Origin: a candidate division FCPU426 bacterium
GTDB lineage: Bacteria > Oederibacteriota > PGYV01 > Palsa-1178
Direction: 5' to 3'
DNA: 64,000 nucleotides
NCBI GenBank assembly: GCA_963840035.1
Contig: CAWIXE010000002.1
Span: 1,312,001-1,376,000, forward strand
Below the pieces are notes generated by a model. It saw only the letters and a list, made by a program, of their open reading frames with translations, was not told where the DNA came from and made no database searches. The position numbers and the translations under genes were made by a program. Shown one piece after another: positions 38,445 through 57,916 of the stretch (position 1 is the stretch's first letter; every line of letters begins with the position of its first letter).

Positions 38445-39842
38445 TTAGTTAATCGAGACTTTCAGTATCTTTTTAGTTCCGGCGCCGACTAACACACGAT
38501 CATCAACCCTGCCGGATACCCATATAATATTATTTTTGTCGGCGATAATTGTCAGCGGTTTTTTCATCCCTTTTCCCGACGCGAATTTCTTCAATTTAAC
38601 TTCATGCTTCATGCCGAACGGAATGAACCTGTCGCCGTTTTTCTTATCCCTGAAAATAACCGGAAATAAAATCTTTTCAGCGTCAAAATAGGCGCAGGAC
38701 TGGTCTTTCAGGTCAATATCCGCGGAATTATCAATCACTTCGAGGCAATAACGCGCCCCGTTAAATTCAACCGCAACACCCGGCTTATACACCCTTACCG
38801 GAGCGTTTTTCTTCTGCCTAATTGGTTTTTTTACCACGACAAAAGCGCCGTCCTGTTCACACACAAATCCCTCGGGCAGCGACGCCTTCCCTCCATTCAA
38901 AAGACAATTCTCCACATCCGTTACAGCTCGTGAAGCCGCCATCCTTACATGGATAAAAATCATTTCAAGCGCGGATTTTATCACCCGCAGACGAAGCGCG
39001 CGGTGCATGGACTTAAGTTTTTTTACGTTAAACTTTACCGTATTGCCCGCCACGTCAGTTACCCGCGGAAAAACCGACTGCGCGGCAGAACCCATGAATT
39101 CATTTTCCTCGGCGAGAATACCGGCCGTAGATGATAGCGCGTCCTTAAACGAATTGTTATATTCCTTCTCTATCTGGGGTATAAGCCGGTTCCGGAGCCT
39201 GTTTCTCATATATATATCCCTGCTGTTTGTTTTATCGATAACAAACGGCACCTCTTCCGCCTTAAGATATTCCAAAATATCTTTTTTCAAAACATCGATA
39301 AGCGGCCTTACAATCATAATCTTATTGTGGAACCGCTCCTTTATCCCGAACTCGCCGCTGTTGACAATCCTGGAAGAAGGAATCCCGGAGAGCCCCGCCC
39401 CGCCCGACCCGGATATCATACGGAACAGCACCGTTTCCGCGTTGTCATCCTTATTATGTGCAAGCGCTATCTTTCCCGCTTTTAAACGCAGCGCGTTCTC
39501 AATAAAAAATTTATACCGCTCATCCCTCGCCACTTTTTCAATCCCGCCTTTTCTTTCGGCCGCGAGTTTTTTTATGTCCTTCTCGCCGTAAATAAAAGGC
39601 ACCCCGTAAAGCGCGGCCATTTTTCTTACGAATTCCGCGTCAATCGAAGAGTCTTTGCCGCGGAGCATATGGTTAAAATGCGCGGCATAAATGGTGAGTT
39701 TGTACTGGTATTTTATAAGGTTTAAAAGATGGAATAAAGCCGTGGAATCAGGCCCGCCTGAAACGCCCACTAAAACAGCGTCGCCTTTGGAAATATATTT
39801 ATGGAATGTTTTGGTGAAAGAAGAAACGAGGTTGTTTTTCAT
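38445..39842 (-). CDS. tilS: tRNA(Ile)-lysidine synthetase
   Basis: VSGGPDS, HFNHMLRG, AHNKDDNAET, RNRLR. Confidence 0.93.
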   Translation of the reverse strand: MKNNLVSSFTKTFHKYISKGDAVLVGVSGGPDSTALFHLLNLIKYQYKLTIYAAHFNHMLRGKDSSIDAEFVRKMAALYGVPFIYGEKDIKKLAAERKGGIEKVARDERYKFFIENALRLKAGKIALAHNKDDNAETVLFRMISGSGGAGLSGIPSSRIVNSGEFGIKERFHNKIMIVRPLIDVLKKDILEYLKAEEVPFVIDKTNSRDIYMRNRLRNRLIPQIEKEYNNSFKDALSSTAGILAEENEFMGSAAQSVFPRVTDVAGNTVKFNVKKLKSMHRALRLRVIKSALEMIFIHVRMAASRAVTDVENCLLNGGKASLPEGFVCEQDGAFVVVKKPIRQKKNAPVRVYKPGVAVEFNGARYCLEVIDNSADIDLKDQSCAYFDAEKILFPVIFRDKKNGDRFIPFGMKHEVKLKKFASGKGMKKPLTIIADKNNIIWVSGRVDDRVLVGAGTKKILKVSIN

Positions 39843-39897
39843 TAAGTTCCCATCTTCTGAATATGCGTCTTTACTGGATATCGCTACCAAATTTTTT

Positions 39898-39975
39898 TGG
39901 TAGCGGCGGAGGGAGTCGAACCCCCGACACTACGGGTATGAACCGTATGCTCTAAACCAACTGAGCTACGCCGCC
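39898..39975 (-). tRNA. tRNA-Met (CAT), elongator type
   Basis: GGCGGCG acceptor stem, TACGG-TTCATAC-CCGTA anticodon arm, TTCGA, encoded CCA. Confidence 0.9.
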
Positions 39976-40446
39976 ACTAAAAATTTTTATAATGCCAAAT
40001 TTACTCAGGCTCAGTTCGTCGCCTTAAGGCGACGGTAACTGAGCTCAAATGTTGCGCGAGCCTTCAGGCGAGCGCTCGAAAATCAAAGGTTTACCTTCAT
40101 CTCATTTTGCCGGTTACTACCGGCACGCCGCCACTAAAAATTTTTATAATGCCAAATTTACTCAGGCTCAGTTCGTCGCCTTAAGGCGACGGTAACTGAG
40201 CTCAAATGTTGCGCGAGCCTTCAGGCGAGCGCTCGAAAATCAAAGGTTTACCTTCATCTCATTTTGCCGGTTACTACCGGCACGCCGCCACTAAAAATTT
40301 TTATAATGCCAAATTTACTCAGGCTCAGTTCGTCGCCTTAAGGCGACGGTAACTGAGCTAAAATGTTGTGTTCGCCTCAAGGCGAACACTCGAAGATCAA
40401 AGGTCCACCTTCATCTCATTTTGCCGGCTACTGCCGGCACGACGCC
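39968..40446. repeat. Tandem array, 3 x 157 bp, in the tRNA-Met leader
   Basis: Units begin at 39968, 40125 and 40282 (partial at 40439); first two look identical, third has substitutions. Confidence 0.92.
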
Positions 40447-40465
40447 ACAACGTTGGCCCCGTTTT

Positions 40466-40560
40466 ACCGTGGCCAGTAGTCGGCCACAACCGACACTGCC
40501 ACAGCGCTGGCTCCACCGTGGCCAGTAGTCGGCTACTGCCGACACTGCCACTGCGCTGGC
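40466..40560. repeat. Imperfect 49-bp direct duplication
   Basis: ACCGTGGCCAGTAGTCGGC...CCGACACTGCCAC.GCGCTGGC at 40466 and 40515. Confidence 0.8.
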
Positions 40561-40594
40561 CTCGTTCCATACGCTGCTCCATTAAGACCATAAC

Positions 40595-40623
40595 TTTATA
40601 ACAAAAACCCAGTTTTTATGCAA
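40595..40623 (-). promoter_or_regulatory. Candidate promoter for the tRNA-Met/tilS transcript
   Basis: TTGCAT-17-TATAAA with TG extension. Confidence 0.5.
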
Positions 40624-47275: not shown

Positions 47276-47348
<73 letters not shown>

Positions 47349-57317: not shown

Positions 57318-57423
57318 ACTACATCAATGTATGATTCATCTAAATTCATAATCGTGGTGTGTCCGGGAACGACCATTAATAGAAGATTCCTCTATTTAAT
57401 CGTTCCGGGCTACACCCCGACTA
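57307..57423. repeat. ~102 bp tRNA-Pro leader repeat unit
   Basis: GCTACACCCCGACTA at 57307 and 57409; homologous to the units at 57704-57916. Confidence 0.8.
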
Positions 57424-57714: not shown

Positions 57715-57916
57715 ACTACCTTAATGTATGCCTTATCTAAATTCAAAGTCGGGGCGTGTCCGGGAACGACTATTAATAGAAGATTCCTCTATCTCATCGT
57801 TCCGGGCTACGCCTACCGAGCTTAATGTATGCCTTATCTAAATTCAAAGTCGGGGCGTGTCCAGTAAAGGCTATAAATAAATCTTCATTAATCTAACCTT
57901 TACTGGGCTACGCCCC
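57704..57916. repeat. Two ~102 bp tRNA-Pro leader repeat units
   Basis: GCTACGCC at 57704, 57806 and 57907; shared TTAATGTATGCCTTATCTAAATTCAAAGTCGGGGCGTGTCC. Confidence 0.85.

Follow-up and report, generated by a model that had tools for sequence, protein, structure and literature searches.

Background

Islands that integrate into tRNA genes, together with their cargo-less remnants, leave an intact tRNA and a displaced fragment and can accrete in tandem. PATEs, which are small non-autonomous elements derived from the IS200/IS605 family, have hairpin ends and a parent IS, insert 3' of a fixed tetra- or pentanucleotide and make no target duplication. In Escherichia coli, tRNA-linked repeats (TLRs) carry no gene and stand in tandem next to tRNA genes, with one to five units in a tRNA or rRNA operon, and the last 18-19 bp of a unit repeat exactly the 3' end of the gene immediately before it; their function is stated as unknown (PMC8144298). 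REP-type repeats (GTAG-REPs, REPINs and BIMEs), which go with RAYT or TnpA-REP, are described as short non-coding palindromes with tandem clusters, a mismatched hairpin and no target duplication, and some of them insert into other palindromes (PMC8266576, PMC3733652). The Ssn nucleases of the GIY-YIG family recognise a hairpin (NTS or SRM) strand-specifically and cut one strand of it as single-stranded DNA (ssDNA), according to a paper in which the word 'tRNA' does not occur (PMC11893778).

In this paper, we report the analysis of a tandem array in the genome of a candidate division FCPU426 bacterium (assembly GCA_963840035.1; hereafter, the source genome). The array lies in a 64,000-nucleotide stretch of contig CAWIXE010000002.1, here defined as the window, and positions refer to the window unless another contig is named. 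Each unit of the array contains a 79-nt element, E, which fails a defining feature of each of the TLR, REP/RAYT, Ssn/SRM and PATE systems and works like a miniature palindromic insertion element. E is an undescribed tRNA- and hairpin-loop-targeting mini-element, arranged here in tandem; no description of it was found in the literature searched, which took in few subscription papers.

The repeat array and its neighbourhood

The array is located 5' of a tRNA-Met(CAT) gene, in the interval bounded by a tilS-like PP-loop gene and a GH26/CBM9 gene of divergent orientation (Table 1). A sequence-only reading of the window had proposed a 157-bp repeat array at this place, and the array is real: TRF gave a period of 157 with 3.1 copies over 39968-40448, units 39968-40124 and 40125-40281 are 100% identical, and unit 40282-40438 is 91% identical. 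On the tRNA strand, a unit opens with tRNA-Met nt 1-8 and the 79-nt E; nt 9-17 come next, then an 18-bp palindrome, the antisense of nt 10-17 and finally a spacer rich in AT, and the first 17 nt of tRNA-Met are restored when E is taken out. That reading was also right that the units begin, on the minus strand, with tRNA nt 1-8 (with one mismatch in the outermost), and both hairpins that it had pointed out, GCCGGT/ACCGGC and CGTCGCC-TTAA-GGCGACG, were found in each unit.

Table 1. Features of the tRNA-Met leader and adjoining sequence in the window
Feature	Position	Strand
tilS-like gene (PP-loop family), conserved tRNA neighbour, outside the element	38445-39890	-
Intact tRNA-Met(CAT), target gene, probably elongator	39898-39975	-
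Unit 1 spacer, AT-rich; possible -10 box TATAAA 10 nt upstream of the tRNA	39976-40008	-
Fold-back of unit 1	40009-40045	-
Fold-back of unit 1: antisense of nt 10-17	40009-40016	-
Fold-back of unit 1: 18-bp palindrome	40017-40034	-
Fold-back of unit 1: copy of nt 9-17	40037-40045	-
Element E copy 1, 79 nt: hairpin P1, closing helix P2, AT-rich loop, hairpin P3	40046-40124	-
tRNA nt 1-8 copy directly before E1	40125-40132	-
Fold-back plus spacer, unit 2; same sequence as in unit 1	40133-40202	-
Element E copy 2, identical to copy 1	40203-40281	-
tRNA nt 1-8 copy directly before E2	40282-40289	-
Fold-back plus spacer, unit 3; same sequence as in units 1 and 2	40290-40359	-
Element E copy 3, different variant (14 changes vs copy 2)	40360-40438	-
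Outermost tRNA nt 1-8 copy, one mismatch	40439-40446	-
49-bp doublet, lone P1-type hairpin in each copy	40466-40560	-
Putative promoter-like element resembling the native tRNA-Met promoter of relatives	40595-40623	-

Unit 3 departs from unit 2 at 14 positions, every one of them inside E (79 nt), and the remaining 78 nt are unchanged (P about 7e-5 if the differences were spread uniformly), hence E turns over separately from its flanks. By inspection, six of these changes make up three compensatory pairs and three more close a pair, in keeping with the earlier suggestion that changes in the third unit preserve pairing.

Upstream of the array, a promoter-like TTGCAT-17-TATAAA was found at 40623-40595 on the minus strand; it was not called by a consensus promoter scan. 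Relatives of the same family that are without the insert have a matching promoter-like element some 10-20 nt before the tRNA, and from this resemblance the leader of ~600 nt is likely to be co-transcribed with tRNA-Met. The source genome has three CAT tRNAs. The one at the array looks like the elongator tRNA-Met, judged by tRNA identity features, and for that reason is probably not the substrate of TilS.

In run X1 (share 0.09), which covered only parts of the stretch and gives no basis for copy number, one contig (depth 4.3) has an E like that of unit 2 immediately next to the native leader, and a single 49-bp copy where the window has two. The lone P1-type hairpin of the 49-bp doublet at 40466-40560 is nested in another inverted repeat, and similar P1-only remnants also lie behind tRNA-Ala(CGC).

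Other repeats were seen near tRNA genes. All three tRNA-Pro genes have upstream a long hairpin made of a copy of the tRNA 5' end and its antisense, enclosing a stretch that resembles the loop of E (window 57318-57420 and 57720-57914; C3 of the source genome near 181200-181300), and tRNA-Pro(CGG) is preceded by two tandem 101-bp units. A 3' trailer hairpin that begins right after CCA and closes on TGG, thus folding back onto the tRNA's own 3' end, follows 17 of the 45 tRNA genes of the source genome, including tRNA-Met, with its hairpin at window 39882-39905 (a count made with no control set). A perfect 7-bp tandem repeat of 10.4 copies occupies window 47276-47348.

Structure of element E

E begins with a 5' hairpin (P1); the remainder, an AT-rich loop and a second hairpin (P3), is closed by a helix (P2). 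The check for covariation in related genomes that had been suggested for this locus came out clearly in favour of the structure: in 88 distinct copies, double-sided changes occur at all 17 pairs and 86.5% of cells pair, 0/500 shuffles reach the score and slid partners pair in 29-43%, although these figures overstate the certainty since the copies are related rather than independent and were aligned to fit the structure. RNAalifold recovered only P2 from the first alignment, in which P1 and P3 were out of register. The folding z-score was -11.3 for the leader with the tRNA; E and the fold-back, folded as DNA, gave values from -2.7 to -8.1.

The strands of E are not equivalent. The TC/TC internal loop of P3, present in 58/88 copies, is a tandem GA/GA on the other strand, and tandem GA pairs are stable. 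As DNA, P3 is more stable on the GA/GA strand in 69/88 copies and the reverse holds in 3; its GNA/GNRA loops likewise number 21 on the GA/GA strand against 4 on the other. For copies at tRNA positions 8/9 and in the D-loop, the GA/GA strand is the one antisense to the tRNA. The whole element, in contrast, folds better on the tRNA-sense strand in most copies, the other strand being the better one in 29/88 (as DNA) or 22/88 (as RNA).

Searches of Rfam 15 over the third copy of E returned only TD-2 (23.3 of 48.7 bits) and STAXI (19.7 of 40.5), both below the gathering score, and nothing was returned for E at 12 other loci. The weak matches (STAXI, TD-2 and miRNA models) were all below threshold and were discarded.

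E as a dispersed family

Profile and covariance-model searches of the whole source genome identified 27 copies of E, which by their right-hand flank comprise 13 of tRNA type, 12 in REP-type hairpins and 2 others. The tRNA-type copies occupy three fixed positions: between nt 8 and 9 (six copies: three at Met, one each at Lys and Phe and a degenerate one at Val), at the end of the D-loop (six: two at Arg, three at Gly and one at Thr) and, antisense, in the T-loop at 57/58 (one, Ala). E is found inside pieces of seven tRNA genes besides Met. A refined covariance model matched 19/24 genomes of the order and 1/75 other genomes of the phylum. The 79 copies in relatives divide into 20 with the 8/9 flank, 30 with that of the D-loop, 9 with that of the T-loop in antisense, 4 inside REPs and 16 of other kinds; the three tRNA flank motifs occur at 1.9% of random positions. 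The flank-based set retained 88/90 matches of one search (two weak ones outside the order were dropped) and 18/27 of a second (six repeats, two partial matches and one weak match were dropped). Counts rest on this set, as tRNA-position assignments with scores of 13 or less are unreliable.

In the relatives, 50/59 tRNA-type copies stand in the transcribed sense. An intact tRNA on the same strand lies within 900 nt of 57/63 tRNA-type copies, a count in which a few copies matched best to a neighbouring tRNA. The split copies often have no nt 1 or an altered nt 1, some of those in the D-loop are full length, and some upstream duplicates take in 19-62 nt of leader. The layout of the Met unit is also found at Phe, Lys, Arg, Ala and Val genes, and the fold-back after E recurs at several tRNAs in a sequence specific to the gene.

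Insertion targets share only a T before the site, and even this base precedes E in only 39/72 resolved copies. The loops of GTAG-type REP hairpins provide empty and filled alleles side by side, with 61 empty hairpins left for the commonest REP family of the source genome, and in the filled alleles E stands in the loop in either orientation. Comparison of empty with filled sites revealed no target-site duplication at E. In REP loops of the source genome such as those at C1:1048238, C1:1155504 and C2:387488, a second hairpin insert of ~32 nt occupies the loop used by E.

Beyond the sequenced relatives, a metagenome scan gave 7 loci, all with E in tRNA D-loops, and on one metagenome contig an intact tRNA-Thr with its trailer is followed by an E-split copy. 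A left-end pattern scan of a genome collection gave 8 loci, of which only one, in a relative already included, has the full E. Searches for E in phages or plasmids gave no match; for viral contigs there was 1 weak partial match, and 0 matches with two patterns.

At the tilS locus itself, the unit is present at 5/20 tilS-linked loci with a CAT tRNA (the source genome and G011, G020, G022 and G023) and missing at 15, including those of all 7 genomes of the same family; the other four carriers represent 3 other families. The Met unit is tandem also in G011 and G020. Within one genus it is present in two of three genomes (G022 and G023) and missing in the congeneric G012. Across families, copies of E are no more alike at the same tRNA (similarity 0.55) than at different tRNAs (0.56), as compared to 0.61-0.65 inside one genome or family. 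Before tRNA-Phe, three genomes from two families have a unit with similar spacers, which suggests long retention; this would be compatible with a function and was counted against a mobile nature of E. At four other loci (L014, L015, L022 and L027), a different, purine-rich structured unit lies downstream of tRNA-Met, and that of L027 ends in a copy of the tRNA 3' end.

E as a probable mobile element

E is likely to be a tiny piece of mobile DNA rather than a regulator of tRNA-Met, as it also occurs inside pieces of seven other tRNA genes and in unrelated hairpin repeats. The entry into non-tRNA hairpin loops in both orientations points to insertion at the level of DNA, guided by structure. Insertion after T in loops or junctions, the lack of target duplication, the use of both orientations and of non-tRNA targets, the patchy distribution and the intact neighbouring tRNAs together suggest a non-autonomous element handled as ssDNA. 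We therefore consider it probable that E is a non-autonomous, loop-targeting mobile mini-element that was likely moved as ssDNA and was afterwards amplified in tandem.

On this view, the unit would be a second copy of the 5' end of tRNA-Met that E interrupts between nt 8 and 9. A hairpin-recognising enzyme may have moved E as a single strand, with insertion after a T in the single-stranded parts of hairpins and no duplication of the target. Since such an insertion would kill the tRNA copy, it could persist only together with a local duplication that left a working gene. Subsequent tandem amplification would account for units 1 and 2, variants of E may be replaced or converted faster than the flanks, and the fold-back after E may serve to mask the duplicated piece of tRNA.

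Could E instead be a functional structured RNA, released from tRNA precursors throughout the lineage, with the array as a multi-copy source? Strong covariation, presence in most genomes of the order, the prevailing transcribed sense in relatives and whole-element folding that favours the tRNA-sense strand all agree with this, and TLRs of E. coli rRNA operons are transcribed, processed and bound by Hfq and CsrA (PMC8144298). However, the covariation would be equally expected of a DNA hairpin read by a protein, the asymmetry of P3 favours the other strand, presence at each locus is patchy, and the antisense T-loop copies and the two orientations in REP loops do not fit an RNA made from tRNA precursors. 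A functional RNA is in our view improbable, and owes what likelihood it has to the covariation and the wide retention. The narrower proposal of a dedicated processed ncRNA array found no support, the core being shared with many other tRNA genes and with REP loops in both orientations.

A cis-acting folding switch for the maturation of tRNA-Met or the expression of tilS had been put forward for this leader. In a two-dimensional model, the proximal copy of nt 1-8 can capture the 3' acceptor strand of the tRNA, and the cloverleaf is predicted to lie above the minimum by 12.3 kcal/mol (unit 1 with the tRNA) or 8.5 kcal/mol (whole leader), compared with only 2.6-6.7 kcal/mol in four insert-free relatives; the Met layout, moreover, recurs at the tilS locus in the four other genomes of three other families. 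Such models nevertheless ignore the tertiary structure of tRNA and co-transcriptional folding. The copy of nt 9-17 and the antisense of nt 10-17 are both present, but the antisense octamer is locked by the copy in its own unit (p=1.0) and its pairing with the tRNA has p=0.0. With the unit absent from 15/20 tilS-linked loci, a core that is dispersed, a layout that is not specific to Met and no sensing element seen, a switch is very unlikely.

It is equally hard to credit a route through RNA, in which a reverse transcriptase acting in trans would copy E along with part of a tRNA precursor and so make the duplication. Under ungapped extension, 16/24 downstream copies start between positions -3 and 5 and 2 more at 5, as a copied precursor would lead one to expect; decay of the flanks would likewise leave only the tRNA part recognisable, though, and the leader taken in by some upstream duplicates, the antisense and REP insertions and the lack of an RVT_1 match in the source genome all count against it.

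That E is a small spliced tRNA intron, with functional split copies, is highly improbable. In its favour, insertion is precise at fixed positions of the tRNA and mostly follows a U, full-length copies occur among those in the D-loop, and the G007 assembly has a split tRNA-Thr(TGT) near a contig start with no intact one found there. On the other side, the array units end at nt 17 of the tRNA; a split copy usually has an intact gene beside it, and its nt 1 is often missing or altered; in a metagenome contig with the G007-type layout, an intact Thr(TGT) is located directly upstream; insertions that are antisense or in REPs cannot be tRNA introns; and no Rfam intron matched.

Search for a mobilising enzyme

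For the mobile mini-element that we favour, no autonomous partner was found in the source genome or in the 24 genomes of the order. Domain searches covered PF01797, PF02371, PF00078 and PF01541 in the source genome, and PF01541, PF01797 and PF02371 in the order. The source genome has 8 Y1 matches and 2 short GIY-YIG genes, and no match to IS110 (PF02371) or to reverse transcriptase (PF00078, RVT_1); IS110 matches were present in 4/24 order genomes. Neither E nor half of E adjoins a gene in 88 GIY-YIG, Y1 or IS110 loci. For short GIY-YIG loci, none had a flanking E among 21 searched with the covariance model (one weak match was not beside the gene) or 48 searched with half-element HMMs. The Y1 genes of the source genome are flanked by repeats other than E, no copy of E flanks any of 30 Y1 loci, and Y1 matches do not track E: in G003, with 14 copies of E, Y1 genes were not found.

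Our best guess, a tentative one, is a small Ssn-like GIY-YIG single-strand nuclease acting in trans, together with host recombination. That Ssn enzymes cut a hairpin strand in ssDNA, and that short GIY-YIG genes lie behind tRNA ends, favours this candidate, though weakly, as the P3 core motif is not enriched (3/30 GIY-YIG loci vs 4/25 tilS loci). A Y1 HUH transposase ranks behind it and is rather unlikely, and the balance of probability goes to some other enzyme, or to one of no known kind.

Several relatives have short GIY-YIG genes directly behind tRNA or tmRNA 3' ends, some with a hairpin that carries the P3 core motif. In L116, L127, L128, L132 and L140, such genes follow shortly behind the 3' ends of tRNA-Gln, tRNA-Glu or tmRNA, with a hairpin that starts at CCA; the tRNA-like 3' end before the gene in L127 was not called by ARAGORN. 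The idea that E is a deleted GIY-YIG cassette was rejected, no long form having been found. At four loci of G010 (L193, L197, L201 and L202), identical IS110-family copies follow the same GGGAGAGG word of a palindromic repeat.

Comparison with described elements

The array resembles the TLRs (PMC8144298) in that it consists of tandem gene-less units beside a tRNA gene that carry an end of that gene, and its three units between the promoter-like element and the tRNA are within the range known for an operon. Downstream of E in the T-loop class come the final ~19 nt of the tRNA, which is the TLR length. A comparison with E. coli tyrT-type repeats had stressed that the array here lies upstream and carries the 5' end; this contrast holds, as the array bears nt 1-17 and only the T-loop class elsewhere has the 3' end expected of a TLR. 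By the description of TLRs, E further differs in being a separable module that occurs at three tRNA positions and in REP loops.

E shares with the REP-type repeats the four features listed above for them (PMC8266576, PMC3733652). However, the GTAG or CGTC foot tag is missing, E starting with the P1 stem or, on the other strand, with a strand of P2; it has three helices, uses REPs as targets and flanks none of the 30 Y1 loci searched. Strand-specific recognition of a hairpin on ssDNA is what E would have in common with the Ssn system (PMC11893778), and the minus strand of P3 resembles, by eye, hairpins beside short GIY-YIG genes of the order; no end of E was seen beside any GIY-YIG gene examined.

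Small size, lack of autonomy, hairpin ends and insertion without target duplication are common to E and the PATEs, from which E departs in having no fixed 4-5-nt target word, in a left hairpin that starts at the junction rather than subterminally, and in that no parent IS was found. The intact tRNA with a displaced fragment and the tandem accretion recall tRNA-integrating islands, but E uses three tRNA positions, both strands and non-tRNA hairpins, and neither an integrase nor cargo adjoins the locus. E is also unlike a classical MITE, as there is no target duplication and its 5-6-bp inverted repeat (P2) starts after P1 rather than at the left end. A derivative of IS110/IS1111 is not indicated, the ends of IS110 elements in the order being unlike E and like variants of E occurring at different targets.

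Conclusions

With this analysis, an odd tRNA leader becomes a defined and alignable element with fixed sites, empty and filled alleles and a covarying structure, the mobility of which is directly testable. The source genome adds what cases confined to tRNA cannot, namely E in non-tRNA hairpin loops and in both orientations. Loci split by E yield false tRNA calls. An example of a split locus in the source genome is C2:1422126-1422204, where ARAGORN calls a second tRNA-Thr(CGT) that consists of the tail of E joined to the 3' portion of a split gene copy.

A bolder proposal, about which we are doubtful, is that E represents an undescribed class of mobile DNA of ~80 nt that reads tRNA-shaped loops in ssDNA, inserts without target duplication and duplicates the struck tRNA segment in the same reaction, leaving the host a working gene to keep; the TLRs of E. 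coli would then be its T-loop branch and the enzyme a new structure-targeted DNA inserter. If found, the enzyme that moves E would explain tRNA-fragment repeats in many lineages, possibly including the TLRs of E. coli.
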